Shown here: positions 10,757 through 39,005 of the stretch, in pieces
Numbering within the stretch: the first letter of the stretch is position 1
Layout of the letters: each line of letters opens with the position of its first letter
Assembly (NCBI GenBank): GCA_031430855.1
Contig: JANPCG010000015.1
Location: forward strand, 68,522-132,521
Direction of reading: 5' to 3'
Length of the DNA: 64,000 nt
Source of the DNA: Candidatus Kaiserbacteria bacterium
GTDB lineage: Bacteria > Patescibacteriota > Minisyncoccia > Phycocordibacterales > UBA918
Position numbers and translations under genes: made by a program
Notes under the pieces: model-generated
Databases searched by the model: none
Told to the model about the DNA's origin: nothing
What the model saw: only the letters and a program-made list of their open reading frames with translations

Positions 10757-10844
10757 TCCAAATGTCATACGAAGAAGTATTATTTTGTAATAAACAAGGC
10801 AAAAATGCGTAGTAATTAGTGTTAGAAATTAAATTACGATAGAC

Positions 10845-10874
10845 ATGACAAAAAAGCTGTATTTGCAGGAGTGA
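10845..10874 (+). pseudogene. Silent 5' fragment of msrA (ATGACAAAAAAGCTGTATTTGC...) fused to repeat-element copy 1
   Basis: At least 16 nt are identical to the start of the msrA CDS at 11160 (atgacTaaaaaagctgtatttgcC). A 1-nt deletion shifts the frame into a TGA inside the repeat hairpin. Confidence 0.4.
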
Positions 10875-10952
10875 AGAAGTGTTAAGACACTTCTGCAAGA
10901 GGTTGCCTGCTATTTTGAAGAATGAAAAATAGCGACAACCTGAACAGGTTCT
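10868..10952 (+). repeat. Structured repeat element, copy 1 (hairpin1 GAAGTGT-taag-ACACTTC; hairpin2 AGGTTGCCTGCTATTTT..AAAATAGCGACAACCT; hairpin3 TTCTGTAAGAA)
   Basis: Homologous to the segments at 11046-11130, 17544-17734, 30509-30714 and 26236-26310. Differences in the hairpin arms are compensatory. Confidence 0.6.
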
Positions 10953-11007
10953 GTAAGAACTGCATTTAGGTAAACGTTTTAATAAATACTCTTTAACAAC
11001 ACATACC

Positions 11008-11046
11008 ATGATCAAGACTGCTGTGCTGGCCGGAGGATGTTTCTAG
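11008..11046 (+). pseudogene. Second silent msrA-like 5' fragment (MIKTAVLAGGCF*) fused to repeat-element copy 2
   Basis: ggatgtttctAggg matches msrA ggatgtttctGggg (GGCFWG) with TGG changed to TAG. A hairpin of the repeat follows immediately. Confidence 0.4.
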
Positions 11047-11130
11047 GGTGAGACAGTCCGGGGGACTGTCGCAAGAGGTTAACGGCTATTTTGGAAAAAT
11101 AGCGATAACCTGAACAGCTTCTGTAAGAAG
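11046..11130 (+). repeat. Structured repeat element, copy 2 (hairpin1 GACAGTCC-ggg-GGACTGTC; hairpin2 AGGTTAACGGCTATTTT..AAAATAGCGATAACCT; hairpin3 CTTCTGTAAGAAG)
   Basis: Same architecture as copy 1 with different hairpin sequences that are still complementary. Confidence 0.6.
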
Positions 11131-11159
11131 TGGATGACCTATTCGTTAATATTTATTTT

Positions 11160-11654
11160 ATGACTAAAAAAGCTGTATTTGCCGGCGGATGTTTCTGGGG
11201 CATGGAAGACCTCTTTCGCGACCTCCACCCCGGCATCATTTCTACGGAAACAGGCTATACCGGAGGAACAAACGAAAACCCAACCTACCAAAATCATCTC
11301 GGACATGCGGAGGCGATTCAGGTCGAATACGACGCCACCAAAATTAGCTATCGCCAACTTCTCGATTTTTTCTTTCGGGTTCATAATCCAACGACGCTTA
11401 ATCAGCAGGGGAATGATCGTGGTACGTCATACCGGTCAACCATTTTCTATGGGAACGATGAGGAAAAAGCTGAAGCAGAGGCATTTATCGATCTCGTGAA
11501 TGAATCTGCACGTTGGGAAGATCCGGTTGTGACAACGCTCGAACCCCTCACCCGGTTTTGGCCTGCGGAAGATTATCATCAAGATTATTTAGTGAAGAAT
11601 CCAGGTGGATATACCTGTCACGCAATACGATTCGAATCATATTTAAAGCAGTAA
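11160..11654 (+). CDS. msrA: Peptide methionine sulfoxide reductase MsrA
   Basis: MTKKAVFAGGCFWGMEDLF...GYTGG...YHQDYL contains the GCFWG active-site motif. The ORF extends to 11130, but the start is taken at ATG 11160. Confidence 0.9.
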   Translation: MTKKAVFAGGCFWGMEDLFRDLHPGIISTETGYTGGTNENPTYQNHLGHAEAIQVEYDATKISYRQLLDFFFRVHNPTTLNQQGNDRGTSYRSTIFYGNDEEKAEAEAFIDLVNESARWEDPVVTTLEPLTRFWPAEDYHQDYLVKNPGGYTCHAIRFESYLKQ

Positions 11655-13339: not shown

Positions 13340-15973
13340 ATGGCTACCAATATGTTCACAATTATCAGAACCCAAACAGCCGGTATTATACTAGCTATCG
13401 TGCTCGCAGGTATTAGCTTTAGTCTACTTGCTCCAGCAGCTTCTGCTCAGGTAGCAAATAGTAGCGTTGTGTCACAACTGCAAGCCCAGATTGCAGCCCT
13501 TATGGCACAAATTGCTGGGATGCAGAGCGGGGTTAATACCACACCTGCAATAGAAGTTTTTGCAGTAGGCTCACTGGTTCAGCCGACAGCCAATGTGCGA
13601 GTTAGGTCCTTATCTGGTACTACTGGTGTTATTTTAGGAACTGCTACTCCGGGAAGTGTTGGAAAAGTAGAAGCCGGTCCAGTAAAACAAGGCGGTGTTA
13701 ACTGGTATCGTATCACATTTAAAACTAACCTATCGGGCTGGGTCGCTGGTACTTGGCTTACTAAGGTCAACAATCAGCTGGTAGATGTGAATACATTTGT
13801 TAAAACAAATAATGGTAGTGACAATAAAATGGAACCGGGCCTAGAAGATGCTTCTATTGTAAATATTAAAGTTTTGCCTGCTAGTTTCGATAGATATGCT
13901 AATAAAGTAGTTTTGCAATTTACTCCTACCGAAGTAAATGGTGAGGATCTACCCTGGGTCGCTTTTGAGAATATTTCACTTTGGGCTAATGGCTGGAATA
14001 TTCGAAACGTTAATGCGGGTGACATGGGTCTATGGAGGAAGGTTGGAAATAGTTACCAGATAACAGTTTTTTCTGGTAACCAAAAAATTTCACCCAACCG
14101 ACCATACAATTTTGTCTTGGCAGTCACGAGTGATGTGGATACTCCAGTAGGAGATCGTTGGAATGTGACAGTGCCAGCTAAAGGCGCAGTAATTTGGTCT
14201 CAGGCAAATGGTCACATGACTAACGCTGCTGCCATGACTACGTATCCGATTGAGTTTATAAAAAGTGATGAAGAAGAAGATCAGGTATATGTCGAAGTAA
14301 TTAAAACTGAAGCGACAGTTATTGCTAACACCTTTGTTAATAGCGAATCAGGTGAATTCAAAATAAAGTTTGAAGTGACGGCCGGTGATAGCGATGTTTA
14401 TTTATCGGGAGTACCAAATGGTTTAGATTATTTCGGCCGTCCATTTTCGGAGGATAGTTTTGTGAACTTTTCTATTGTGAATGGAGACGGACGAGTGCTA
14501 GATGGATATAAACTTGAGGGGTATACAACTACGCTTACTACTACAGCTAACGATGTTGTTGCTGGTCCAGGAACAATACACTTTATTAGCGAGGGTGAAA
14601 CAGAAGAATTTACCTTTGTGGTCAAATACAAACCAGCTACTGGTATGGCCGGAGCCTATCGAGTTCAGCTAGAAGGACCACTTCGATACAGCCCTGATAA
14701 ATCATTTAATGACGGGAAACCTAATAAAACTGCAGATATTAACGAAAAAGATTCACTAACACCGCAGCTTTACCTCATTGGCGGAGCTCGATCGACTGCA
14801 AAAATTGATTCCTTTACCGTTACACCAAGTAAAATACAAGCGGGTAGTGGAGTTCCAGTTACCTTTGCGTGGAAATCATCGGGAACTGCCTACTGTTATA
14901 TAACAGAAAATCTTAATGGAGTTACTAACAATCTTGGTCTGTCTGATTTGAAAACTCAAGGTACTGTAACGTATTATGTTCCAGATAAGTATACAAACGG
15001 AACAGAAGTGCCATATGTATTAAATTGCCAAGATGCCAGTACACAAAAAGATACATTAGTGCAGGCCACTACAAAAGTAAGCCTTGTTTCTGAAATGCCA
15101 TTTGTGACTATTACAGGTATTACAACTGGAGCTACCCCGATAATTTCAGGAAATTCTGAAGAGCGAATAAGTAAACTCGGCTTTTCTATAGCGGGCCCTT
15201 CGGGTGATAAGGTGTATGCAAGTGGTGATATTGCCCCGGTGAATGGTAAATGGTCACATAAAGTTACTGCAAAGTTACAAGAGGGTAACCATGAAGTGAT
15301 TGTATATATGGAAAATAAAGAAGTTGCTCGTAAACCGTTTACAGTTGGTGGACAAACACCAATAATTATGTGCATAAGTGGTGTTAAAAAATACATTGAA
15401 GGTACAAAATTACAGCAGATTATTGTGGGTGGTCAAACAACAGTTATAGCTGATGCCTCGTATGTGTGTCGAAAAGGGAAGTGGGTGATTGAAGGTTCGT
15501 TGCCAAATTCGCCAATTACCAGTAGTTCGACTCCACGCATCACGAGTATTGTTGCCAGTCCGAGTGGGCAATATGTCGCCACGGTGGTATTGGGTCGCCC
15601 AACTACTACACGTTCAGTGATGGGACCGGTTAATTTAGGAACTATTTCCTGGGGTGATCGGGTGACTGAAAATATCTTTGGATTAGTAACTAGAAATGAA
15701 ATGGTTGTTACGAAAAATCACACCTATAGAACACCTGGTACGTACACGGTTACGGTTAAAGGTCTGAGTGGAGCAACTGCCTCGAAAACAGTGGTAGTAG
15801 GGACTTCTGGTTCAGGTACGGGAAGTAGTACTCTTCCTATGATACGACCGTCAGGTTTTGGTGGTTCATCTAGTACTTCAACAGGTATCGTTCGTGGCGC
15901 ATCAGTCGATGTCTTTGCAGAAATTAGTTCAACACTTACAACTATTAGCGAAATGCTAAAAACAATAAAGTAA
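13340..15973 (+). CDS. Large secreted protein (877 aa) with N-terminal signal peptide, coiled/Ala-Gln region and SH3b-like domain
   Basis: Signal peptide with ASA|QV cleavage site. VRVRSLSGTTGVILGTATPGSVGKVEAGPVKQGGVNWYRITF..GWVAGTWL is SH3b-like. The rest is Ig-like beta-rich sequence. Confidence 0.7.
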   Translation: MATNMFTIIRTQTAGIILAIVLAGISFSLLAPAASAQVANSSVVSQLQAQIAALMAQIAGMQSGVNTTPAIEVFAVGSLVQPTANVRVRSLSGTTGVILGTATPGSVGKVEAGPVKQGGVNWYRITFKTNLSGWVAGTWLTKVNNQLVDVNTFVKTNNGSDNKMEPGLEDASIVNIKVLPASFDRYANKVVLQFTPTEVNGEDLPWVAFENISLWANGWNIRNVNAGDMGLWRKVGNSYQITVFSGNQKISPNRPYNFVLAVTSDVDTPVGDRWNVTVPAKGAVIWSQANGHMTNAAAMTTYPIEFIKSDEEEDQVYVEVIKTEATVIANTFVNSESGEFKIKFEVTAGDSDVYLSGVPNGLDYFGRPFSEDSFVNFSIVNGDGRVLDGYKLEGYTTTLTTTANDVVAGPGTIHFISEGETEEFTFVVKYKPATGMAGAYRVQLEGPLRYSPDKSFNDGKPNKTADINEKDSLTPQLYLIGGARSTAKIDSFTVTPSKIQAGSGVPVTFAWKSSGTAYCYITENLNGVTNNLGLSDLKTQGTVTYYVPDKYTNGTEVPYVLNCQDASTQKDTLVQATTKVSLVSEMPFVTITGITTGATPIISGNSEERISKLGFSIAGPSGDKVYASGDIAPVNGKWSHKVTAKLQEGNHEVIVYMENKEVARKPFTVGGQTPIIMCISGVKKYIEGTKLQQIIVGGQTTVIADASYVCRKGKWVIEGSLPNSPITSSSTPRITSIVASPSGQYVATVVLGRPTTTRSVMGPVNLGTISWGDRVTENIFGLVTRNEMVVTKNHTYRTPGTYTVTVKGLSGATASKTVVVGTSGSGTGSSTLPMIRPSGFGGSSSTSTGIVRGASVDVFAEISSTLTTISEMLKTIK

Positions 15974-16064: not shown

Positions 16065-17561
16065 ATGTCTCGCATGGATGGATTGGTCGTCTTTAGTGAC
16101 GTCTCATATGAATATGATGCAACCCGGCCAATTTTAAAAGCGGCCAATTTTGTCGTGCGACGAGGTTCAAAACTTACTCTGATGGGTCAAAATGGTGCCG
16201 GCAAAAGTACCCTTTTTGCTTTGATTATCGGCCATCTTAAAGTGGACGAGGGCGATATTAACATTCAACCACGTACCACCATTGCGGTCTCGCGTCAGAT
16301 TATTCCACGGCCTGAATTAGAACTCACCGTCCGAGCATTTTTTGAACAGTGTTTTACTGAAAAAGTCTACGATATTGACCCTAAAATTGATGACGTGCTT
16401 GAGATTGTAAACTTGGTGCCAACAGAGAAAATGAAAGAGGAATTCAAGGACCGTATAATTGGTAGCTTCTCAGGTGGTCAGCAGGCGCGCTTGCTTTTAG
16501 CACAGGCGTTGATTCAGAACCCGGATGTTCTTCTGCTTGATGAGCCAACGAATAATCTTGATGTGGCTGGGATTGACCACCTCACCTTGTTCCTAAAGGA
16601 CTACAAGAAAACGGTATTGGTAATTTCCCACGACGCTGATTTTCTTAATTCATTTACTGACGGAGTACTCTACCTGAATGTTCAAAATCGTCAGGTGGAA
16701 CAATATAATGGAAATTATCATGCGGTCTTAAAAGATATTGCAGCTCGGGTGGAAAAAGAACAACGTCAAAACGCACAGCTTGCTAAAGAAATCCAAGCCA
16801 ACAAAGACAAAATTAACTACTTCTCGAATAAGGGCGGGAAGATGCGGCTGGTTGCTAAACGGATGCGGGACGAAGTCGAGGAAGCGGAAGAGAACAAAGT
16901 CGATGTGCGGCGTGAAGATCGGACGATTCGTCCCTTTACCATTGAAACCCAGCCGGAGGTACCGGTTGATGTAGTGAAACTCTCGTCATATAAAGTAATT
17001 CGTAATCATCAGCCCAAAGACGTGGAATGTTCCCTCATTATTAAGCGTGGTTTTCATCTTCAGATTATAGGTCCAAACGGAATTGGGAAAACCACGCTCT
17101 TGGAGTCTCTGGCGTCAGGTCATGCGAAAGGGGAGCATATTGCAGAAGGGGTAAAAATTGGCTACTACCGTCAGGATTTTTCTAATCTTGAGTTTGATAA
17201 AACAGTATTTGAAACATTGATGGATTCGATGTCAAAGAAAATTGAAGAAGATATGAGGTCTGTCGCCGCTGGTTTTCTTTTAACTAATGACGTGATGAAA
17301 ACTCGCGTGGGAAATCTCTCTGAAGGACAAAAAGGGCTGGTTGCCTTTGCCAAGCTGACGATGGAGCGGCCAGGCCTCTTGATTCTCGATGAGCCAACAA
17401 ACCATATCAATTTCCGACACATCCCGGTGATTGCCGAAGCCTTAAATGAATATAAGGGTGCCATGATCTTGGTTTCTCACGTCCCTGAGTTTGTGGAGCA
17501 AATTCGTATTGATGACGTACTTGATTTGGGTAAAGAGAGCAAACGAGTGAGAAGTGACTAA
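16065..17561 (+). CDS. ABC-F family ATPase (tandem ABC domains, no TM; translation-factor type)
   Basis: Two Walker A motifs (GQNGAGKST; GPNGIGKTT), two signature motifs (LSGGQQARLLLA; LSEGQKGLVAFA) and two Walker B motifs (LLLDEPTNNLD; LILDEPTNHIN). The last 6 codons and the stop lie inside repeat copy 3. Confidence 0.85.
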   Translation: MSRMDGLVVFSDVSYEYDATRPILKAANFVVRRGSKLTLMGQNGAGKSTLFALIIGHLKVDEGDINIQPRTTIAVSRQIIPRPELELTVRAFFEQCFTEKVYDIDPKIDDVLEIVNLVPTEKMKEEFKDRIIGSFSGGQQARLLLAQALIQNPDVLLLDEPTNNLDVAGIDHLTLFLKDYKKTVLVISHDADFLNSFTDGVLYLNVQNRQVEQYNGNYHAVLKDIAARVEKEQRQNAQLAKEIQANKDKINYFSNKGGKMRLVAKRMRDEVEEAEENKVDVRREDRTIRPFTIETQPEVPVDVVKLSSYKVIRNHQPKDVECSLIIKRGFHLQIIGPNGIGKTTLLESLASGHAKGEHIAEGVKIGYYRQDFSNLEFDKTVFETLMDSMSKKIEEDMRSVAAGFLLTNDVMKTRVGNLSEGQKGLVAFAKLTMERPGLLILDEPTNHINFRHIPVIAEALNEYKGAMILVSHVPEFVEQIRIDDVLDLGKESKRVRSD

Positions 17562-17734
17562 TGTCACTTCGCAAGACCTTGCCTGCTCTTTTGGAAAAAG
17601 AGCGACAAGGTGTACCGCTTCTGTAAGAAGTAGCGACTATTGCGAACTTTGTTCCCGATTTGTCCTCCTAAGGCTAAAACGTGATTTAATATCACGTTTT
17701 AAAACCATTTGAGATATTTTGAATTAATGAAAAA
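17544..17734 (+). repeat. Structured repeat element, copy 3 (long form: hairpin1 GAAGTGAC-taat-GTCACTTC, hairpin2, hairpin3, then hairpin4 TTAAAACGTGAT-t-ATCACGTTTTAA and a conserved ATTTGAGATATTTTGAA tail)
   Basis: About 85% identical to copy 4 over about 190 nt. The ABC-F stop codon sits in the hairpin1 loop. Confidence 0.65.
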
Positions 17735-17868
17735 TATCCAAATGGTGTACTGCTCCTGTAAGGAGAAGCGCTGGAGCGTATACTCCAATACTTTTGAATA
17801 CATACGTTATTTCCGTATTTTGCACCCTTGGTCCTTGAACTGGTATACTAGGGCACGTCATTTGCTGT

Positions 17869-18957: not shown

Positions 18958-20352
18958 TCACAACTGAGCACGCTCTCTGATGGTCGCAAACGAGTCGTCG
19001 ACCAGCAGTTCGCCGTTCTGGTAGATCGGCCGCATCACCACATCGTCTTGGTTGAGGGTGGATGCGTAGTCCTCGGATACCGTACGGTATCCGCATGAGC
19101 CGATTCCACACTGGTAGACGAGGGCGAGACGGCCGCGCTTGCTGGCTTTGCGGTGGTCGGAAATTGGGTCTTTGTAGACTTCCCTCCAAACCCCGTTCTG
19201 CTTTACGGCGCTCGCCTTCATTGCGAATTGCATGGTGTCCCGGTCAACTTTCTGCAGCAGACCAGCACCCATACCAAACGCAATGTTGTCAGTCGAGATC
19301 ATTTCTGCCTCGAGGTTCGCGAGGATGGTCTCGAGAGATGCCAGGTTGATTCCGTCACCCTGAATCACTCGTACACACGAGGGAAGTACATGATACCCCT
19401 TCGAGTTCGTGGTGGAGCCAAAGGTTTTCATGAGGCGTTTGATCACCTCAATCGGCATCGTTGTGGGATCGCCCGAGTCTGGACGAATCACCAACGTACC
19501 CCCCATCGACATCACTTCCGACCGTAGTTCGCCGCCCCATAGCACGTCGACGGCATGGTAAATGTCGTAGCTGTCAGAGACGACGGCAACGAGTTTTCCT
19601 GCTCCCCCAAACTGGGAGAGCATGTTGCGGTAGGCATCGACCTCACTCTCCTTTCCCCAGGCGGTGATAGTAGAGTGTTCGGCTGCCGGGATTGAGAATC
19701 CCGGCATGTCTGCCTGGTAGTACCGGCGCGCTGTCATGAGACCCGAAATCGTATCGGTCCCCATGAAGTTCACCAGGTGTGCCATGCCGCCTAGGCCTGC
19801 CGCTTCTTCGCTCGTTGCACCACGCGCGCCAAAGTCGTGGAGCTTGAACGCAATCTGTCCATCTGGATCGTCCGAAGAGCGAACCAGGGAGGCGTAGATC
19901 AGTTCCTTCGCTTTCCGCGAGAGGCTGGCCACCGTGGTCGGGTACCAGATCGCCCGCAGGTAGCTCGTTTCAAGGTACGAGGTGAGCCAGGGGAGTTCCG
20001 GGTCGGTGTTCACTACTTGTGAGAGAACGTTCCGAGTCGGAATGACCGCCCCTTCCGGCGCCGCTTCGATGGTGACCGGAAGAAAGCCGCCGTACTTCTT
20101 GATGATGCGGTCGACGCCGGCCACGTTTGGTTCGAAGCCGTGAGCGCGCGCAATCATTTCCCACTCATCCCGGTCACCATTGGTGATAGGGGTGAGTAAG
20201 TTTTTCTTGATCCACGCTTGTGGTCCGAGAAAGACCGCGTTGTCGAAGGGTCCACCACGGGCTTCGATGTACGAAGACACGTGGGTGGTTCCGGGCGGGT
20301 ACTGACGAAAGTGCGACAGTTTGTAGCTGTCGACATCAAGTAAGATAGACAT
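18958..20352 (-). CDS. nadV: Nicotinamide phosphoribosyltransferase (NAMPT/NadV)
   Basis: N-terminal MSILLDVDSYKLSH (NAMPT DSYK motif). Size and the rest of the sequence fit NAPRTase-family type II PRTases. The start is taken at ATG 20352, 2 nt after the nadM stop; the ORF extends to 20451. Confidence 0.8.
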   Translation of the reverse strand: MSILLDVDSYKLSHFRQYPPGTTHVSSYIEARGGPFDNAVFLGPQAWIKKNLLTPITNGDRDEWEMIARAHGFEPNVAGVDRIIKKYGGFLPVTIEAAPEGAVIPTRNVLSQVVNTDPELPWLTSYLETSYLRAIWYPTTVASLSRKAKELIYASLVRSSDDPDGQIAFKLHDFGARGATSEEAAGLGGMAHLVNFMGTDTISGLMTARRYYQADMPGFSIPAAEHSTITAWGKESEVDAYRNMLSQFGGAGKLVAVVSDSYDIYHAVDVLWGGELRSEVMSMGGTLVIRPDSGDPTTMPIEVIKRLMKTFGSTTNSKGYHVLPSCVRVIQGDGINLASLETILANLEAEMISTDNIAFGMGAGLLQKVDRDTMQFAMKASAVKQNGVWREVYKDPISDHRKASKRGRLALVYQCGIGSCGYRTVSEDYASTLNQDDVVMRPIYQNGELLVDDSFATIRERAQL

Positions 20353-20354
20353 GA

Positions 20355-21275
20355 TCAGGTTCCTTTCATTGTCCTGAGATACATGAGTAACATTTCGCCG
20401 AGCGGTTGATGCGATGTTATCAAGCGCTCGGAGAGTTCGTTTACGGGACACCAGTAGATGGCGTCAATGTCATCACTTGCCGACGCTTGGCCCCAGGTGT
20501 GCGTGAGCACAAAGAGGTCAGTCATCACTTCATCTGGTTCGTCGCGGTATCTGAAGTCACGGATGCGCCGTGATCCCACGAGAATCGGATTGTCGACCTT
20601 GATGGCGCCCAGTTCCTCGGTCGCTTCACGGATTGCTGCCGCCCCCCGAGATTCGTCTGTCGGATCAACGAAGCCACCAATGAAACGCCATCGGCCGCCA
20701 TCTTCACGTTTCTGTCCGAGCCAGACATGTGTTCGTCCACCGTCCATCACCGCCATATCGACGGTTGAGAAGACGATGGGAAAACGAGTCATCGACGCCG
20801 CAATAAAGCCACGTCTGTAGTCACGACCAGGTGGGTAGTGTCCCGCCAGGTGTTCAGCCTTGATCTGGTTTCGGATTGTCGTTCCCGATGGAGCATCGAC
20901 CGGATCGATAACGCGAACGGGAAAGATGCCAGAATAGTAACCAGCAAAACCATCCCGCGATGCGTAGAGGGTAACCGACTCATTCGGGAAATAGGTCCGA
21001 ATGAGTTGGTCGAGACTTTTGCTCCATTTCGCGTCAGACGGTTGGTCGTGCAAAGTAACGACTCGCGTGACGGTAGGAATTTCTTCCTGGACCATCGCTA
21101 CCCGGATATCTCCGGGCAAGGGGTGAACCGGTCCGGGGATTTTCACCCGATCGCCGATTACGACCAAACTGTGATCATTTTCTGATTGCATGGTAGCAAT
21201 CAAGTGACGGTGTCCGGCATGTAGGGTGTCAACCTGCAGCCGGGCAACGACAACGCCAACGGTAGAAGTTTTCAT
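20355..21275 (-). CDS. nadM: Bifunctional NMN adenylyltransferase / Nudix hydrolase (NadM-Nudix)
   Basis: N-terminal GVVVARLQVDTLHAGHRHLI carries the nucleotidyltransferase (H/T)xGH motif. C-terminal REATEELG is the Nudix box. AGGAG SD upstream. Confidence 0.75.
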   Translation of the reverse strand: MKTSTVGVVVARLQVDTLHAGHRHLIATMQSENDHSLVVIGDRVKIPGPVHPLPGDIRVAMVQEEIPTVTRVVTLHDQPSDAKWSKSLDQLIRTYFPNESVTLYASRDGFAGYYSGIFPVRVIDPVDAPSGTTIRNQIKAEHLAGHYPPGRDYRRGFIAASMTRFPIVFSTVDMAVMDGGRTHVWLGQKREDGGRWRFIGGFVDPTDESRGAAAIREATEELGAIKVDNPILVGSRRIRDFRYRDEPDEVMTDLFVLTHTWGQASASDDIDAIYWCPVNELSERLITSHQPLGEMLLMYLRTMKGT

Positions 21276-24000: not shown

Positions 24001-26172
24001 ATGGCTCGAGAATTTCCGATTAATCGCATGCGTAATTTCGGTATTGTGGCGCACGTTGACGCTGGTAAAACCACGACGTCTGAACGAGTTCTTTTTTATA
24101 CCGGAATGTCCCACAAAATTGGTGAAGTACACGATGGTGCTACGGTAACTGACTGGATGGAACAAGAGCGAGAACGTGGTATTACGATTACCGCGGCGGC
24201 GATTTCCTGTAACTGGTCTAAATCTGAAGTGGTGGACCGTAAAGATCGGTCGCAGATGTACAACTTTAACATCATTGACACTCCCGGCCACATTGACTTT
24301 ACGGCTGAAGTAAAGCGTTCAATGCGTGTACTTGATGGAGCGGTCGTCGTGTTTGACTCAGTAGCTGGGGTAGAGCCACAATCTGAAACGAACTGGGGTT
24401 ATGCTGACGAGGCTGGGGTGCCACGTATTTGTTTTGTAAATAAAATGGACCGCCTGGGAGCCGACTTTGAAAAGTCGTATGCCAGTATCCTTGACCGACT
24501 CTCAAAGAAAGCGGTTCGAATCCAACTACCGTGGGGTGCTGAGGATCAGCTCAAAGGAGTCATTGATTTGATTAAGATGAAGGCCTTTGTGTTTGAAGGT
24601 GAAATGGGGATGACTGTTCGAGAAGTAGAGATCCCTGCCGAACTACAAGCTGATGCCGAAAAATACCGCGCAGAGCTTATTGAGCGTGTAGTAGAGCATG
24701 ACGACGCGATGATGGAGGCCTTCCTCGAAGGTAATTTGCCAACCGATGCTGACCTCAAAGCAACGTTGCGTAAGGCGGTCTTGGGTAACCAGCTCTTCCC
24801 GGTGATGACGGGTTCAGCCCTCAAAAATATTGGGGTACAGCTCGTGCTCGATGCGGTGGTTGATTACCTACCAGCTCCGACTGATTTGCCACCAGTTCGT
24901 GGAATTAATCCAAAAGATGATTCAGAAGTCACCCGTACGGCGAGCGATGAAGAACCGTTCTGTTCACTCGCGTTTAAGTTGCAGACTGACCCATTTGTTG
25001 GACAGCTGACCTTCTTCCGGGTTTACTCAGGTGTGGTAAAAGCCGGAAGTTATATTTATAACTCAACCACAGGTGAACGTGAACGACTCGGGCGAATTGT
25101 ACGACTCCAAGCTGACAAGCGAACTGAAATCGAAGAGGTATACGCGGGAGAAATTGCTGCCGGAGTAGGACTCAAAGACGTGAAGACATCGCATACACTC
25201 TGTGATGAAGCAAAGCCAATCATTCTCGAACAAATTGTCTTCCCAATGCCCGTGGTAGCAATGCGCGTTGAACCTAAAACTAAAAACGACCAAGAAAAGA
25301 TGGGGACTGCACTCCGTAAACTGGCAGATGAAGATCCAACCTTTATCGTATCGTCAGATGCTGAAACAATGGAAACAATTATCGCGGGTATGGGAGAACT
25401 CCACTTGGAAATTCTTGTTGACCGTATGAAGCGTGAGTTTGGAGTTGAGGCAAACGTGGGTGCTCCTCAGGTAGCCTACCGCGAGACGATTCAGCGCGCA
25501 GCCGAAGCCGAATACAAGTACGTCAAACAATCAGGAGGTAAGGGTCAGTACGGTCACGTTAAGATCCGCATCAAGCCACTTGAAGCGCTTGATCCAGAAG
25601 CGAAGGTTGCAAAAAATGTCACTCGTGAAGATCATTTTGAGTTCGTCAACAGTATTAAGGGAGGGGTAATTCCACAGGAATTCATCCCAGCCGTTATGAA
25701 GGGTGCCAAAGAAGCAATGGCCCGCGGTCAAGTTGCTGGCTACAAAATGGAAGATGTTTCTGTCGAGTTGTACGATGGTAGTTACCATGATGTTGACTCT
25801 TCGGAAATTGCCTTTAAACTAGCCTCTATTTATGCCTTCCGTGAAGCAGCGAAGAAGGCGAGTGCCGTGCTCTTGGAGCCAGTCATGAAGATTGAAATTC
25901 GTACCCCTGAGCAGTTCATGGGCGATGTCAACGGAAATATTTCAAGTAAGCGTGGACAGGTAGAAAGTATGGGTGAATTAGGTGACAAAAAAGTGGTTAC
26001 AGCATCGGTACCGCTTTCAGAGATGTTCGGGTACACGAATACCCTGCGCTCAATGACCCAAGGTCGGGCGAGTATGACGATGACCTTTGACCACTACGAT
26101 GTTGTACCGCCAAACGTATCATTGGAGATTCGTAAGGCAAGAGGCGTCAAAGACATAGAAACCGAAGAATAA
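24001..26172 (+). CDS. fusA: Elongation factor G
   Basis: NFGIVAHVDAGKTTTSERVL...DWMEQERERGITI...DTPGHIDFT and full-length EF-G domains (723 aa). Confidence 0.95.
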   Translation: MAREFPINRMRNFGIVAHVDAGKTTTSERVLFYTGMSHKIGEVHDGATVTDWMEQERERGITITAAAISCNWSKSEVVDRKDRSQMYNFNIIDTPGHIDFTAEVKRSMRVLDGAVVVFDSVAGVEPQSETNWGYADEAGVPRICFVNKMDRLGADFEKSYASILDRLSKKAVRIQLPWGAEDQLKGVIDLIKMKAFVFEGEMGMTVREVEIPAELQADAEKYRAELIERVVEHDDAMMEAFLEGNLPTDADLKATLRKAVLGNQLFPVMTGSALKNIGVQLVLDAVVDYLPAPTDLPPVRGINPKDDSEVTRTASDEEPFCSLAFKLQTDPFVGQLTFFRVYSGVVKAGSYIYNSTTGERERLGRIVRLQADKRTEIEEVYAGEIAAGVGLKDVKTSHTLCDEAKPIILEQIVFPMPVVAMRVEPKTKNDQEKMGTALRKLADEDPTFIVSSDAETMETIIAGMGELHLEILVDRMKREFGVEANVGAPQVAYRETIQRAAEAEYKYVKQSGGKGQYGHVKIRIKPLEALDPEAKVAKNVTREDHFEFVNSIKGGVIPQEFIPAVMKGAKEAMARGQVAGYKMEDVSVELYDGSYHDVDSSEIAFKLASIYAFREAAKKASAVLLEPVMKIEIRTPEQFMGDVNGNISSKRGQVESMGELGDKKVVTASVPLSEMFGYTNTLRSMTQGRASMTMTFDHYDVVPPNVSLEIRKARGVKDIETEE

Positions 26173-26234
26173 TTAATAAAAAAGCACCCCTTCGGGGGTG
26201 CTTTTTTATTAATTATTCTTCGTATGTCTTTGAC
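26146..26234. repeat. Long (~40 bp arm) inverted repeat spanning the fusA stop codon and centred on the terminator hairpin
   Basis: GTCAAAGACATA(gaaac)CGAAGAATAATTAATAAAAAAGCACCCC-ttcg-GGGGTGCTTTTTTATTAATTATTCTTCGTATGTCTTTGAC. Confidence 0.6.
26178..26208 (+). terminator. Rho-independent terminator after fusA
   Basis: AAAAAAGCACCCC-ttcg-GGGGTGCTTTTTT. Confidence 0.85.
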
Positions 26235-26235
26235 G

Positions 26236-26310
26236 GACCCTGCGAGCTACTTTGTAACCAAGAGGAAACAAAGTAGCCACAGGGTGTACAGTTCCTGTAA
26301 GGAATCAAAC
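26236..26310 (+). repeat. Diverged copy 5 of the structured repeat element (hairpin GCTACTTTGT..ACAAAGTAGC, then GGGTGTACAGTTCCTGTAAGGAA)
   Basis: Aligns with the core of copies 1-4, GCAAGA..hairpin..GGTGTACCGCTTCTGTAAGAAG. The hairpin3 arms are compensatory (TTCC/GGAA versus CTTC/GAAG). Confidence 0.45.
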
Positions 26311-26446
26311 TGGGTTAAGTAATCAATATATTTTCTCTACGAACTTTTACAACAATGAGACCCCTTCAGGGCGCTTTTTGTTTGCCTGTAGTTTGTGCAT
26401 AACTTTTCTACATTAATTTTAGACGTCAACTATACTATATTTACGT

Positions 26447-28689: not shown

Positions 28690-29886
28690 ATGGCTCAACA
28701 AGACTTTGACCGATCAAAGCCGCACATCAACGTAGGGACCATTGGTCACGTTGACCACGGCAAGACCACTTTAACTGCAGCGATTTTAACGGTACTCAAC
28801 CAAAAAGGAGGTGGCTATACTGCTACTACCAAGGGAGTAGATGAAATCGATAAAGCCCCAGAAGAAAAGGCGCGAGGCATCACGATTTCACTTTCACACA
28901 GTGAATATGAAACGCCGACTCGTCACTACGCACACATTGATGCTCCAGGACACGCTGACTATATCAAAAACATGATTACTGGTGCAGCCCAGATGGACGG
29001 TGCTGTACTCGTGGTGGCAGCAACTGATGGAGCGATGCCACAGACACGCGAACACGTACTTTTGGCAAAGCAAGTTGGAGTTCCAAACATTATCGTATTC
29101 CTCAATAAGTGCGATATGGTTGATGATGCAGAAATGATTGAACTCGTTGAAGAAGAACTTCGTGAACTCCTTACTAAGAACGGTTTTGATGGGGTGAATG
29201 CACCAATCATCAAAGGTTCTGGACTCAAAGCGCTTGAAGATCCAACGTCAGACTGGGGTCAGAAAGTAGTTGACCTGGTTGATGCGATGGACTCATTCTT
29301 CCCATTGCCAGTTCGTGATCTCGACAAGCCGTTTCTGATGCCGGTAGAAGACATCTTCTCAATTGAAGGTCGCGGTACCGTAGTAACAGGTCGTGTAGAG
29401 CGCGGAAAGGTAAAGGTTGGTGAGACTATTCAGATCGTTGGTATCAAAGATACGGCAGAGACGACAGTGACGGGAGTTGAAATGTTCAACAAGCAATTGG
29501 ATCAGGCGCAAGCGGGAGACAATGCGGGAATCTTGCTCCGCGGTACAAAGAAAGAAGATGTACATCGCGGTCAGGTACTCGCTGCAAAGAACTCAGTAAC
29601 ACCACACACTGAATTCGAAGCTGAAGTATACATCCTTTCAAAAGACGAAGGTGGGCGTCACACACCATTTTTCTCAGGTTACAAGCCACAGTTCTACATC
29701 CGTACAACGGACGTAACGGGTGAAGTTACTTTGATGGAAGGGGTAGAAATGACTATGCCAGGAGACACTGCAACCTTTAAGGTAAAATTGGTAGCCCCAG
29801 TTGCGCTTGAAGAAGGAGGTAACTTCGCGATTCGAGAGGGAGGGAAGACTGTAGGCGCCGGGGTTGTAACAAAAATCGTAGCATAA
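28690..29886 (+). CDS. tuf: Elongation factor Tu
   Basis: [17 protein letters not shown]...[22 protein letters not shown]... matches EF-Tu along its full length (398 aa). Confidence 0.95.
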
Positions 29887-30049
29887 CAATCGCTGAAATT
29901 AACTTATCTACTTTGTCAGAACTGCAGTTTGGTCAGTCGCCGTATAAAAATACGTCTTCTTTCCAAACTTTGCTCTTCCTCGTATCTAAGACAATTTCAA
30001 CAATTGTTTAATACAGATAAGGCAGAGAATTAAAATCACTGAAATTATT

Positions 30050-30400
30050 ATGGCAACTCCAACAACCAAAAAAACCAAAGCTGGTGCCGATGTGGTTGCA
30101 AAACTGCGTATCCGAGTGCGTGCCTTCGAGCACAAAATCCTCGATAGCTCAGTCAAGCAAATCATCGATACTGCCCTACGGTTTGACGCCGAAGTAGTCG
30201 GCCCGATTCCACTTCCAACTGAAATCAAGAAATACACCGTGAACCGGGCGTCGTTCGTATACAAAGACGCGCGAGAACAATTCGAAATGCGAACTCATAA
30301 ACGAGTTATCGACATTATGAACCCGAGTCCAAAAGTGATTGAAGCCCTCACCAATCTTTCATTGCCGTCCGGCGTGAATATTGACGTGAAGATGATGTAG
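30050..30400 (+). CDS. rpsJ: 30S ribosomal protein S10
   Basis: LRIRVRAFEHKILDSSVKQIIDTA...GPIPLPTEIKKYTVNRASFVYKDAREQFEMRTHKRVIDI matches S10. Confidence 0.9.
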   Translation: MATPTTKKTKAGADVVAKLRIRVRAFEHKILDSSVKQIIDTALRFDAEVVGPIPLPTEIKKYTVNRASFVYKDAREQFEMRTHKRVIDIMNPSPKVIEALTNLSLPSGVNIDVKMM

Positions 30401-30478: not shown

Positions 30479-30508
30479 CTCGGCTCATTTAGTAGTAAAG
30501 CAAAACAT

Positions 30509-30714
30509 CGAGTGAGAAGTGACTAATGTCACTTCTCAAGACCTTATCGCTCTTTTGAAAAAAAGCGATAAGGCTGTAATTGCATCCTAATGCAATCTGC
30601 GGAGTGATATTAAGTCATTCCTCACCCTGCTCATTTCTCACCCCTCACCTAGGGCTGAAACGTGATTAAATATCACGTTTCAGAGCTATTTGAGATAGTT
30701 TGAAGCGTGAAAAC
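30509..30714 (+). repeat. Structured repeat element, copy 4 (long form, same hairpin1 as copy 3; hairpin2 CCTTATCGCTCTTTT..AAAAGCGATAAGG; hairpin4 CTGAAACGTGAT-taaat-ATCACGTTTCAG)
   Basis: Aligns with copy 3 along its whole length. Hairpins 2 and 4 carry compensatory substitutions. Confidence 0.65.
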
Positions 30715-30900
30715 TGTCTAAAGGTATGCAGATCCTGCGAGGAAGTTTATCCGTCTCTTCTCAACTTGATTATTTAACTACTTTAATAATGCTTTAGACA
30801 GTATTTGTGTGAACACAAAATCCTTCGTGGGGTCCATTCTGGGTGTGTGCACAAAGTCTGTGTGTAGCCGTTTTAAATGATAAACTTTGCTTAACCTTCT

Positions 30901-31425
30901 TTGTGTATGACTTTTTTTAAACCGTTTGTTATTATCCCTACTTTTCTTATCATTGCGCCACTTTTTTTAGGTTATAGTTTTATGAGTGCCCAGGTGTGGA
31001 CCAGTCCGCTAGCAACACCGCCTGCTAATAATACGAGAGCTCCGATAAATGTGGGTATCTCTGCAACCACTTTGCAAAATGGTGCTGGGTCGCTAGTCTT
31101 TAATCGTTTCGCGGCGACAGATGCTGTATGGTCAAATTCATACTGTGATTCTCTTGGGGGTAACTGTTTCTCCCCTGCTACTGGCCCAGCTATTCCAAAT
31201 CCTACCTGCGTTAACCGATCGAGTGCAATTGGTTCAAATAGCGTAACAATTTCGTGTCTGGCGGGTGAAGTAGCAATGAGTGGTGGGTGTCTTGACACCT
31301 GTTCAGGTGTCAGGACCGGTGATTGTACGGCTAAGGCAATTAATTACTCCGTACCAACAACTAACGGATGGTCATGTACGGTAAATAATCGGGCTCAGGC
31401 CACCGTACGCTGTTGCACATTCTAA
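30901..31425 (+). CDS. Exported Cys-rich protein, paralog P1 of a four-member family (conserved N-terminal module AQVWTSP..PPANN..APINVG..LVFNRFAATDAVWSNSYCDSLGGNC)
   Basis: N-terminal TM/signal followed by a conserved ~80-aa module shared with 37449-38219, 38325-39005 and 53992-54510. The C-terminal part is variable with 10 Cys. Confidence 0.6.
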   Translation: MCMTFFKPFVIIPTFLIIAPLFLGYSFMSAQVWTSPLATPPANNTRAPINVGISATTLQNGAGSLVFNRFAATDAVWSNSYCDSLGGNCFSPATGPAIPNPTCVNRSSAIGSNSVTISCLAGEVAMSGGCLDTCSGVRTGDCTAKAINYSVPTTNGWSCTVNNRAQATVRCCTF

Positions 31426-37365: not shown

Positions 37366-37440
37366 AACACAAAACACCCCCATCTGGGGGTGTTTTGTGT
37401 TTGGGTACAACTATCAGGGGTGAATATATACCGCGGTATA
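37366..37440 (+). repeat. Direct repeat unit A (terminator AAAACACCCCC-atct-GGGGGTGTTTT + GTGTTTGGGTACAACTATCAGGGGTGAATATATACCGCGGTATA leader)
   Basis: About 95% identical to 38228-38302. It contains the rplB terminator and a TTGGGT-N18-TATATA promoter-like leader for P2. Confidence 0.7.
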
Positions 37441-37448
37441 ATTATTAT

Positions 37449-38219
37449 ATGACAATTACAAAACAAGTAGCCGTTATAATTTCTATTGCGGTAATTCTAC
37501 TTGGTCTGGCTGGGTATAACTTCATGAATGCGCAAGTGTGGACTCGTCCAACATCTCAGCCGCCACAAAATAACGTTCGAGTACCTATTAACGTGGGAAT
37601 TTCGTCTACAACAATTCAAAATGCAGTAGGCTCACTCGTCTTTAATCGATTTGCAGCAACAGATGCTGTGTGGTCCAACGCATATTGTGATTCTCAGGGG
37701 CAAAACTGTCAGAATCTAGGAAGTTCAGCAACTTCAGCAATTAATTACGTGCAATATGCAAAAGACTATTGCGATTTAAATGTTCCTAATCCAGGAAGTA
37801 CAAGTCTTCACGGAGTTAAATTAGCTAAGGGCGGTTTTTATGATTTTTATGATAAAAATGGAGCAACTTCAATTTTGGAATGGACATGTAAAGGTCCGAC
37901 TTCAGAAGTAAGCTACGAGATTCAAAATGCGTGTGGTTTTAGTGTAATAAATCCGGGCAGTGTGTCTCTGAATTCCGTTAGATTAAAAAATGGAACTAAT
38001 TATGATGTGTATGATTCTAATGGAGGAACCGCGATTCTGGAGTGGAGATGTAATAGCTCTGCACCAACCTATATAAGAAATATTGAAACCGCTTGTGGTT
38101 TTAGAGTTCCAAACCCAGGGAGTATTTCTCTAAACGGGGTCGTTGACAGAAATGGTAATTTCTTTGATCTTTATGATAATAATAATGGAACCGCGCGGCT
38201 CGTGTGGAGTTGTAATTAA
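37449..38219 (+). CDS. Exported Cys-rich protein, paralog P2 of the family; C-terminal region has three ~50-aa tandem repeats
   Basis: Conserved N-terminal module (NAQVWTRPTSQPPQNNVRVPINVG...YCDSQGQNC). Then 3x [C..NPGS.SL..V.L..G..YD.YD.NG.T..L.W.C]. The ORF extends to 37395 inside the repeat leader. Confidence 0.6.
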   Translation: MTITKQVAVIISIAVILLGLAGYNFMNAQVWTRPTSQPPQNNVRVPINVGISSTTIQNAVGSLVFNRFAATDAVWSNAYCDSQGQNCQNLGSSATSAINYVQYAKDYCDLNVPNPGSTSLHGVKLAKGGFYDFYDKNGATSILEWTCKGPTSEVSYEIQNACGFSVINPGSVSLNSVRLKNGTNYDVYDSNGGTAILEWRCNSSAPTYIRNIETACGFRVPNPGSISLNGVVDRNGNFFDLYDNNNGTARLVWSCN

Positions 38220-38227
38220 ATTTGTAA

Positions 38228-38302
38228 ACACAAAACACCCCCTATATGGGGGTGTTTTGTGTTTGGGTACAACTATCAAGGGTGAATATATACCGCGGTA
38301 TA
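38228..38302 (+). repeat. Direct repeat unit B (second copy of terminator + leader)
   Basis: See unit A. It marks a tandem duplication of the terminator/leader plus a family gene. Confidence 0.7.
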
Positions 38303-38324
38303 CTAATTATAGTAAGTATTTTAA

Positions 38325-39005
38325 ATGAAATTAACAAAACATTTTACAACAATAGTACCTCTTACTGTCATTTTTCTTGGCCTGGCTGGATACGGTTTTA
38401 TCAGTGCGCAGGTATGGACTAGTCCAACCGCGACTCCTCCTGCTAATAATGCTGCTGCTCCAGTAAATACTGGTTTAACTACCCAAACATAATCGGGTAA
38501 CTTTAGTGCAAACATTGTCTCCGCTGCAACCTCAACCTGGTCACCAAGATATTGTGATGCGTTGGGTGGTAACTGTTGGGACCCTACAACTGGCGCTCCT
38601 GGTGGGGGAGATACGATTATTGTTGGGGGGCAATGCTTCGAACCAGCCTGGGCGGTAACATGTAATTGGAATTGGAGTGGTGATGGAAATGACAATAGTA
38701 CATACATTCGACCATTAAGTGTTAGTCCTACTGGAGTTTGTAATTCAGTGGGAAGATCTTACCAGTACCACACCATGATTTTAGCGCAGTGCACCGCTGC
38801 ACCAGTATATGCCTGGTCAGTTGGCGCGTATGCTTGTAACGCACCGTATGCGTACTCGTGTCAAACAACTTCAGGAACCAATGTTCGTACGGTAACATGT
38901 CAAAATCAATATGGCGGTGTCGGTGCTGATAGTCTCTGTCCTAGTCCAAAGCCTACGACTGCGGGCGGATCTTGTACGAGGAATGGTGGTGGAAGTGACT
39001 GTTAA
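38325..39005 (+). pseudogene. Family paralog P3 interrupted by a single in-frame TAA (38490-38492); otherwise intact over 226 codons
   Basis: MKLTKHFTTIVPLTVIFLGLAGYGFISAQVWTSPTATPPANNAAAPVNTGLTTQT*SGNFSANIVSAATSTWSPRYCDALGGNCWDP... is all in one frame. The downstream part is annotated as ORF 38562..39005. Confidence 0.55.

Follow-up and report, generated by a model that had tools for sequence, protein, structure and literature searches.

The 64,000-nucleotide (nt) stretch of DNA analysed here, referred to below as the window, comes from a Candidatus Kaiserbacteria bacterium (assembly GCA_031430855.1, contig JANPCG010000015.1, positions 68,522 to 132,521) and carries, at four loci and always on the + strand, seven units of a small structured element. 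These units belong to a previously undescribed family which, as far as sampled, is confined to the class Paceibacteria of the Patescibacteria, also known as the Candidate Phyla Radiation (CPR). The element acts as a single-stranded nucleic acid and not as a double-stranded palindrome; its fold is selected on one strand, its copies lie at the ends of unrelated genes and of tRNA and tmRNA genes, and at one site it has a clean boundary with the gene that it enters. We see roughly an even chance that it is an insertion element which is non-autonomous, depends on its structure and is recognised in trans.

Anatomy, selected fold and distribution

Each unit is about 85-105 nt long and is made up of five parts: a first helix (H1), a junction, a second helix (P2), a linker string and a third helix (P3). 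H1 is variable in sequence and is either a local hairpin or a helix formed with neighbouring gene-end sequence, P2 is a long helix with an internal bulge, and P3 is a helix of 4-5 base pairs (bp) with a UGUAA loop. In the window units the junction between H1 and P2 reads (C)GCAAGA or AAAAC and the linker between P2 and P3 reads GAACAG or GGUGUACNG. Across genomes three single-stranded strings are near-invariant, namely A(A/G)GAC on the 5' side of P2, GGUGUAC(N)G between P2 and P3, and the UGUAA loop itself, and in an alignment of the homologues the helix sequences are free to vary. The apical internal loop of P2 often has the form YGA.../...CGAAA, of the tandem G·A type, and is otherwise present in a short form. 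The units fall into three types of connectivity. Type A (U1, U2, U3a and U4a) follows the pattern GG|UGAGA-H1-UCGCA-AGACC... and has a local H1, often with a UGGGA loop, type B (U3b and U4b) has a longer H1 and a nearly fixed P2, and the third type, which does not occur in the window, is linked to tRNA and tmRNA genes. The consensus of the 5' junction in aligned copies is RRGG|UGAG. A small hairpin, (A)UUUUUC-AGCA-GAAAAAU, recurs 20-30 nt 3' of the element at six of the compared loci or contigs, which are labelled with an L throughout (L080, L056, L017, L055, L033 and L050), and is possibly another module.

Evidence for selection on this fold comes from within the window and from other genomes. 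Every window unit is more stable than its dinucleotide shuffles (fold z = -2.9 to -7.8), and for a MAFFT alignment of the seven units, which is independent of the covariance model, RNAalifold predicts 29 pairs, of which 18 stay paired through two-sided changes. Among 77 homologues from other genomes, double changes are seen in 28 of the 29 pairs, 92.9% of cells are paired as against 68.8% after shuffling, and the covariation score is 0.454 as against 0.121, a level reached by none of 500 shuffles, with the qualification that this alignment was fitted to the covariance model and is so biased toward the structure. In a slid control, with the partner moved by 1-3 columns, the score was at most 0.095. 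G·U and U·G pairs outnumber A·C and C·A pairs in the homologues by 67 to 10, or by 53 to 10 (p = 3e-8) when the outermost, weak pair of P3 is omitted, and the fold is therefore selected on one strand, the strand as given. An earlier note on this DNA had proposed that the pairing is maintained under selection by compensatory changes and is not ordinary drift of repetitive extragenic palindromic (REP) type; both proposals are borne out, with the addition that the selected pairing is specific to one strand. RNA is the simplest reading of the single-stranded form, single-stranded DNA being also possible.

The same note had described five loci of consecutive hairpins, all of which exist where it placed them and with the hairpin sequences it quoted, and which are refined here to seven units, as the loci at 17.5 kb and 30.5 kb each hold two units in tandem. 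Its fourth hairpin and its conserved tail (ATTTGAGATA.TTTGAA) are indeed present, but are parts of the second tandem units rather than the first, the hairpin being helix 1 of U3b and U4b and the tail the 5' half of their P2. Two covariance models, one made from the seven units and the other from the 77 homologues, both recover exactly these seven in the window (E-values 1e-15 to 1e-26); no further copy there came out of scanning the two strands with the full model, and the pattern ACNGNNNCTGTAAG has five exact matches in the window, all on the + strand.

U1 (10872-10960, type A) has the layout UGAAGA-H1-UGCAAGA-P2(GGUUG..CAACC)-UGAACAG-P3(GUUC UGUAA GAAC) and scores 107.7 bits (E = 4e-26; fold z = -5.7), and U2 (11049-11130, type A, 89.3 bits) lies 30 nt 5' of the intact start of msrA at 11160. 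U3a (17548-17630, type A) is fused to the 3' end of the ABC-F gene and is followed by U3b (17675-17765, type B), which has orthologues in two related contigs, L010 and L013, and consists of H1 UAAAACGUGAU..AUCACGUUUUA, P2 CCAUUUGAGAUAUUUU..AAAAUAUCCAAAUGG and P3 CUCC UGUAA GGAG. U4a (30513 to about 30600, type A, 66 bits, fold z = -7.8) has the same H1 as U3a, with P3 replaced by a different hairpin, ATTGCAT CCTA ATGCAAT, and U4b (30656-30744, type B, 79 bits) is a paralogue of U3b, 86% identical to it over the D6 repeat stretch, with UGCGA in the loop of P3. The core of U5 (26230-26304, 59-66 bits) reads UGACGGAC-P2-GGUGUACAG-P3 UUCC UGUAA GGAA, and its helix 1 is a long hairpin of 80 nt (26150-26229) that takes in the 3' end of fusA, an intrinsic terminator and the antisense arm TTATTCTTCGTATGTCTT; the match of the second model (R2) at this locus extends over 26139-26314. 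None of the units has a U-tail of its own, as the note had remarked, and scans around U1-U3 showed nothing that looks like a promoter and, for terminators, weak resemblances only.

The window matches, at 99.98% identity, contig JAYTDW010000015 of the metagenome-assembled genome (MAG) GCA_043735715.1, and its ABC-F and MsrA proteins have their closest relatives in MAGs of Patescibacteria, Paceibacteria and Kaiserbacteria. Contigs at strain level are 98.8% identical and show few substitutions, too sparse for a test of selection. A scan of species-representative genomes for the exact pattern GTGTACNGNTYCTGTAAGRA matched at least 119 stretches. Among the 80 records that were listed, the majority bear the names Paceibacterota, Parcubacteria, Nomura-, Zambryski-, Kaiser-, Lloyd- or Taylorbacteria or Minisyncoccia, all Patescibacteria lineages, about 21 are labelled uncultured Candidatus Saccharibacteria and about 13 only 'uncultured bacterium' or 'bacterium', and no other phylum is named among them. 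The covariance model located its 77 copies in the 8-kb pieces taken around the listed pattern matches, and viral contigs gave a single weak, miniature match. Rfam 15 had no match in the window at the gathering threshold, its permissive mode (E up to 10) returned only noise over U1 and U2, and in 18 related loci only tRNA and tmRNA were matched. Full-text searches of the literature found no description of such an element in Patescibacteria.

Insertion at gene ends and tRNA genes

Clean insertion is seen on comparing two msrA sites which encode an identical MsrA protein, one of them empty (L139) and the other filled (L137). The empty site reads ...AGTAAGT-ATG(41 nt)TTCTGGGG-TATGGAAGACC..., and in the filled site the same gene start, ...ATG(41 nt)TTCTGGGG, is followed by the element (TGAGCAGTGAC...GTTCTGTAAGAAC), then by TGGAAGAGCT and TGTAATGCAATAAAAATCT, and then by a further start, ATG(same 41 nt)TTCTGGGG-TATGGAAGACC.... 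The 103-nt element is preceded by GGGG(T) and followed by the resumed gene sequence, (TA)TGGAAGA.., with no target base duplicated; ten bases of that sequence persist on its 3' side, and the second, intact gene start comes after them. The insertion is 3' of a G-run (...GGGG|UGAG...). In what is labelled the P0137 lineage a further unit lies 13 nt past the msrA stop on the opposite strand (L137:3505-3617 and L139:1272-1384, both on the - strand), and is present in both the filled and the empty haplotype of the msrA start.

The msrA gene of the window repeats the filled layout twice, as F1-U1 and F2-U2. F1 (10845-10871, +) is a truncated and frameshifted msrA 5' end (ATGACAAAAAAGCTGTATTTGCAGGAG) with a 17-nt exact repeat of the real msrA start, and it ends at the 5' edge of U1 in an alternative junction, after GCAGGAG, of a type also found in L135 after GCCGGAG. 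F2 (11008-11048, +; repeat family D17) is a second truncated msrA 5' end (MIKTAVLAGGCF*), which finishes with ...TTTCTAGGG at the 5' edge of U2, in a junction of the type also found in L136, L137 and L063. F2 comes from a different allele: its identity to the real start is only 76%, and it matches other msrA alleles, those of the form MIK(T/I)AVLAGGCFWG found in relatives; the pile therefore records successive events that involved several alleles. Downstream of U2 are a 10-nt remnant of msrA, TGGATGACCT (11131-11140, +), for which the intact gene has TGGAAGACCT (11203-11212), then 19 nt with a -10-like TAATAT, and then the real start. Boxes of -10 type are found 7-12 nt before the ATG in the window (11145-11160) and in the spacers of L135-L137, with no evident Shine-Dalgarno sequence there, which suggests that msrA and other targets may be leaderless. 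Four independent short-read contigs (L006-L009) begin inside U2 (window 11085-11103), 58-76 nt 5' of msrA; these starts are assembly breaks as expected at a repeat.

Presence and absence of units also differ between the window and its relatives L010 and L013, in which the coding DNA compared is about 78% identical. The ABC-F gene of the window reads into helix 1 of U3a and has its stop codon in the loop (17559-17561), as the earlier note had recognised, so that the protein ends in ..GKESKRVRSD* instead of ..GKERK*; a unit of this kind after ABC-F is absent from L010 and L013 and found in the window only. U4 follows rpsJ, again as noted before, and here U4a carries 16-18 nt of an ABC-F 3' end (GTAAAGCAAAACATCGAG, 30495-30512, +; repeat family D7) that is of the GKAK* allele type and matches L013, a contig whose ABC-F spacer has an 'empty' and a 'filled' copy in tandem. 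U5 was likewise correctly placed after fusA, a position at which there is one unit in the window, two in L013 and three in L010. The second of those in L010 is the orthologue of U5 and is preceded by a window-type remnant of the fusA end (AAGACATAGAAACCGAAGATTAA), which immediately follows P3 of the first unit. The arm of U5 (TTATTCTTCG-TATGTCTT) is complementary to the fusA 3' end across the terminator, and in L010 the arm and the gene-end remnant co-vary (GAATAA/TTATTC versus GATTAA/TTAATC). A unit in the spacer between tuf and rpsJ is found only in L013, where it is antisense, and the empty spacer of the window and the filled one of L013 are too diverged to define its edges; a unit in the L28-M50 spacer, before the M50 peptidase gene, is found only in L010.

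The third type of unit is found on the same strand as a tRNA or tmRNA gene and 40-80 nt downstream of it. The strand 5' of the core complements the last 19-24 nt of the tRNA, from the T-loop through the 3' strand of the acceptor, and is usually split by H1 exactly at the boundary of acceptor and T-stem; P3 is then followed by a direct copy, more or less decayed, of the same 3' part of the tRNA (32 nt in L020, 20 nt in L037, 22 nt in L050 and 18 nt in L066). These inserts are 150-250 nt long, with no open reading frame (ORF) inside and no integrase gene. U5 is the version of this type at a protein-coding gene, and complementarity between the core-adjacent strand and the neighbouring gene end is frequent in the family as a whole. 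The arms were considered as copies of the tRNA 5' strand, an explanation rejected on the ground that they complement the T-loop and have A opposite U64 where the tRNA has G50 (L046 and L024). They were also considered as terminal inverted repeats, which was rejected too, since their sequences change with the locus and match that of the tRNA beside them.

A truncated copy of a gene end that holds the element, beside an intact gene, recurs at many independent targets. Protein-coding targets include msrA (in four genomes), a GH1-like gene (with a 35-nt repeat), genes cut after ..FWG codons, rplK and fusA; 5' parts are duplicated for tRNA-Thr, tRNA-Asn, tRNA-Glu, tRNA-Ser and tRNA-Leu, and 3' parts for tRNA-Phe, tRNA-Val, tRNA-Met and tRNA-Thr, and the element also lies beside a partial duplicate at a tmRNA gene. 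In the loci examined no copy was found inside an intact ORF or tRNA gene, each genic copy being in a truncated duplicate. At L065 (2790-2830) there is a fold-back in which the truncated copy of tRNA-Leu runs 7 nt past the element (CAAGTCC) and is followed, without a loop, by its own complement (GGACTTGAACCC) and then by the intact tRNA-Leu gene.

Comparison of 93 copies with their flanking ORFs gave 34 in the same orientation as both neighbours, 19 opposite to both, 14 in the class opposite/same and nine in the class same/opposite, with the rest at locus ends; such mixed orientation fits an inserted element and not a fixed untranslated region. Most copies are directly 3' of intrinsic terminators, with no space for a promoter. 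No recurrent neighbouring protein family was found within 3 kb (358 ORFs clustered from 80 loci), the largest cluster being a housekeeping protein at seven of the 80 loci, and about 40 window ORFs scanned against Pfam showed no domain of a transposase, integrase or reverse transcriptase. The earlier note, which had seen a structured family, had not seen the tandem units, the truncated msrA starts, the ABC-F fragment in U4 or the insertion behaviour across the class.

A second, unrelated core occurs downstream of tRNA genes in L047 (4900-5176 and 6500-6742, both on the - strand), L084 (2400-2650, -) and L062 (2083-2300, +). It consists of GAAGGCCG, a hairpin with a UGGGA loop, GAGGCGGGGUCGCG, a further hairpin and GUGA; it has a 5' arm antisense to the tRNA 3' end and a 3' copy of the tRNA 3' part, and has no Rfam match. 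L050 (7372-7560) has a possible third core. This suggests that the tRNA-linked architecture, and not only the main core, is a feature of these genomes.

The window has several other features of interest. The str operon is split, with rpsL-rpsG (995-2163) 22 kb upstream of fusA (24001-26172); two ORFs without a Pfam match (429 and 137 aa) lie between fusA and tuf-rpsJ (28690-30400), and rplC and the genes that follow it begin only at about 34.7 kb. The EF-G protein encoded at 24001-26172 has 723 aa and matches GTP_EFTU over residues 9-291 as against a profile of 188 positions, with an insertion of about 95 residues in the G domain that is also found in L010 and L013. Some gene slots vary between neighbours that are conserved: in the one at 10757-11654 msrA is absent from L010 and replaced by a 572-aa ORF in L013, and an 877-aa ORF (13340-15973) and the pair NAPRTase and NUDIX (18958-21275) are absent from both relatives. 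After rpsJ and rplB there are paralogous ORFs without a Pfam match (30901-31425, 37395-38219 and 38321-39005; families D1, D4 and D8), two of which share a 73-nt upstream segment that is 93% identical (37377-37449 and 38239-38311) and includes a hairpin and TATAAT-like boxes.

Mechanism and rival explanations

In favour of an insertion element are its clean insertion, its many unrelated targets, its lineage-specific sites, the flanks that it carries and the lack of promoter space after terminators. The element would enter DNA cleanly 3' of a G-run, without duplication of the target site. As it has no genes, it would have to depend on an enzyme that is encoded elsewhere and recognises the conserved core, for which an HUH/Y1-type transposase, as in REP/IS200 relatives, or a reverse transcriptase would be candidates. 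Insertions in the first or last codons of genes, or in tRNA genes, would survive only where a partial tandem duplicate keeps the gene intact, and such rescue would explain the truncated msrA starts before U1 and U2, the remodelled end of ABC-F and the ABC-F fragment at rpsJ. A more far-reaching version, to which we would give only a low probability, is that of a programmable, target-complementary nucleic acid in which the P2/P3 core would be the scaffold for a Paceibacteria enzyme and the variable strand of 10-24 nt, complementary to the tRNA, tmRNA or gene 3' end beside it, a guide that would steer insertion or processing to gene ends and would be rewritten by RNA copying at every new site; that the family represents a categorically new guide-bearing or retro-type mini-element in CPR bacteria is likewise a real possibility, but of low probability.

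Several observations weigh against an insertion element. No partner enzyme was found in the window ORFs scanned or among the neighbours in 80 loci. In 28 of 49 loci the element is carried by the G-rich strand (p = 0.39), with no strand bias detected relative to local GC skew, the skew estimates from 8-kb pieces being noisy; the seven of seven in the window are not independent cases. No two copies are identical, U3 and U4 being about 86% alike, and there is no sign of recent bursts. The arms of 10-24 nt that are antisense to a tRNA or gene end are not accounted for by standard transposition chemistry, and CCA follows the copied tRNA end in two of the four complete cases, an ambiguous result as evidence of an RNA intermediate because the copied end could be the original 3' end of the resident gene. 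The 'empty' msrA site could also be the product of a deletion between the 41-nt direct repeats instead of the ancestral state. Finally, orthologous copies are 77-89% identical as against about 45% for neighbouring spacer (77% for U3b and its L010 and L013 orthologues, 89% for the U5 core and L010:20408-20497), and they differ mainly by compensatory changes, seen in H1, P2 and P3 of U3b; H1 of the ABC-F copy is AAACG/CGUUU, AGAG/CUCU and CUAG/CUAG in the three genomes. Such conservation fits a host function and sits less easily with a relic that is purely selfish.

It is in this light that a host non-coding RNA module at transcript ends has to be considered, one that would be an insulator, a processing or stability element, a tRNA-end mimic or an antisense partner and would have spread by local duplication and gene conversion. 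We take this to be a real possibility, although we lean against it. The strand-specific pairing with its tolerance of G·U, and invariant strings (A(A/G)GAC, GGUGUACNG and the UGUAA loop) typical of a protein- or RNA-binding surface, are what such an RNA should have; the ABC-F and fusA orthologues are kept with compensatory changes despite the divergence of coding DNA, the tRNA-antisense arms are near-perfect while the duplicated tRNA fragment decays, and the hairpin of fusA end and arm co-varies even where the gene-end copy is a remnant only. By inspection, P3 also appears to resemble the anticodon arm of tRNA-Tyr (CUGUAAG). A transcript is harder to reconcile with copies placed right after terminators without room for a promoter, with the 19 of 93 that are antisense to both neighbours, with copy numbers and positions that vary between related genomes, with clean insertions inside coding sequence accompanied by rescue duplications, and with the lack of a consistent class of partner gene. 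Spread through RNA, in the manner of a retroelement or ribozyme, is in our judgement improbable; here an RNA with a 5' UGAG and a 3' end after P3 would be linked, by ligation or template switching, to the ends of other RNAs, and after copying to DNA would enter by homology to the captured fragment. The captured fragments begin either at the ATG of genes that are probably leaderless or no more than about 4 nt from the mature 5' end of a tRNA, the copied 3' parts of tRNAs stop within 2 nt of the mature 3' end, the copies in L037 and L066 carry a CCA absent from the neighbouring gene, the junction follows G-runs as non-templated addition of C would give, and fold-back, antisense copies adjoin the element (L065 and the type C arms). 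Recombination between alleles that differ in their upstream DNA accounts just as well, however, for the same fragment boundaries, the spacers hold promoter-like DNA that an RNA would not contain, CCA is absent from the other two complete cases, and neither a reverse transcriptase (among the neighbours and window ORFs scanned) nor a match to a ribozyme family in Rfam was found.

The earlier note had also raised a recombination site of the attC type, and this reading, or that of any folded-DNA site for a site-specific recombinase, is largely refuted and retains very little probability. The fold is strand-specific and variable in sequence, and the window's gene slots (msrA, the 877-aa ORF, NAPRTase plus NUDIX) do vary between relatives; the element nevertheless has three helices around conserved single-stranded junction strings in place of a single R''-L''/L'-R' hairpin, alignments show no GTTRRRY or RYYYAAC boxes at its edges, no integrase or attI was found in the scanned window, the insertions of the 877-aa ORF and of NAPRTase plus NUDIX have no adjacent unit, and the units are not one per gene as in a cassette array. 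A riboswitch-like leader that acts in cis on downstream genes such as msrA is just as hard to credit: U2 ends 30 nt before the msrA start, tandem units resemble tandem riboswitches and the core is conserved, but the downstream genes are unrelated, orientation is not fixed as it should be for a 5' leader of coherent genes (34, 19, 14 and nine copies in the four classes), many copies face away from genes or follow tRNA genes, no expression platform is evident, and the copies upstream of msrA lie in truncated gene fragments. Other candidates were rejected on anatomy, namely the hammerhead, twister, hatchet and pistol ribozymes, a canonical K-turn in the P2 apical loop, group II domain V and the T-box. 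Sequestration of a Shine-Dalgarno sequence by P3 was rejected on its distance of 15-55 nt to start codons, and a self-splicing intron on the finding that no copy interrupts an intact gene. A miniature inverted-repeat transposable element (MITE) of DDE type is opposed by the lack of common terminal inverted repeats and of a target-site duplication at the clean msrA insertion, and no known insertion sequence (IS) was matched.

Comparison with known systems and significance

As an insertion element the family would be most like, in its working, the REP and REPIN sequences mobilised with RAYT proteins and the miniature elements derived from IS200/IS605, known as palindrome-associated transposable elements (PATEs). 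These too are short, gene-less, hairpin-forming intergenic repeats that are recognised as folded single strands; they insert 3' of a short motif without target-site duplication, often just after terminators, and are long-lived, with some copies conserved at orthologous sites. The comparison of L137 with L139 (..TTCTGGGG|element|(TA)TGGAAGA..) shows the same placement 3' of a short motif with no duplication. The element differs in having three helices around invariant strings instead of one palindrome, and in the rarity of the inverted doublets that make up REPINs (4 of about 80 loci, L026, L054, L062 and L067), the window copies being direct tandems. A Y1 (HUH) transposase gene, the class to which RAYT belongs, turned up neither in the window nor among recurrent neighbours, the lagging-strand bias expected by the IS200/IS605 model was not detected in the 49 loci, and arms complementary to a neighbouring gene end have no counterpart in REP or PATE families.

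Other systems share single features with it. attC sites are likewise recognised by structure on one strand and tied to variable gene content, but there is here no single bulged hairpin and there are no R and L boxes, integrase, attI or order of one site per cassette. Islands and CRISPR-associated transposons (CASTs) that home to tRNA or tmRNA genes also lie 40-80 nt downstream of these genes with direct repeats of the tRNA 3' part. At the edge of their insert, type V-K CASTs carry a delocalised homing guide that is complementary to the neighbouring tRNA gene, and the tRNA-complementary stretch at the edge of the present inserts bears a likeness to it. The present inserts, in contrast, measure 150-250 nt and carry neither a transposase or integrase gene nor a Cas gene, a hairpin divides the complementary stretch exactly at the boundary of acceptor and T-stem, and the same core also inserts in the ends of protein-coding genes. 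Class C group II introns share the preference for sites just after intrinsic terminators, a GUGAG-like 5' end and a structured RNA, yet the element is far too small, has no domain V/VI, reverse transcriptase or Rfam intron match, and was never found to interrupt an intact gene. tRNA-derived short interspersed nuclear elements (SINEs) and the tRNA captures of Neurospora retroplasmids are also small chimeras of a structured element and a tRNA, sometimes with CCA, whereas here nothing speaks for a reverse transcriptase and CCA is mixed (two of four).

The CPR/Patescibacteria have tiny genomes in which few mobile elements have been recognised and almost no non-coding RNAs described, and the family reported here is widespread in one of their classes, shows covariation of textbook quality and has no counterpart in Rfam. 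Its copies reshape core-gene ends, with a new C-terminus for ABC-F, alternative ends for fusA and piled-up starts for msrA, and at tRNA and tmRNA loci they leave, as a mark, sequences that are antisense to the tRNA 3' end. The element also explains assembly breaks and mis-called gene ends in MAGs of Paceibacteria. If it is mobile, a gene-less element persists in streamlined genomes by way of gene ends that partial duplication restores; a host RNA or a guide would instead point to an as yet undescribed protein partner and possibly to a new targeting chemistry.

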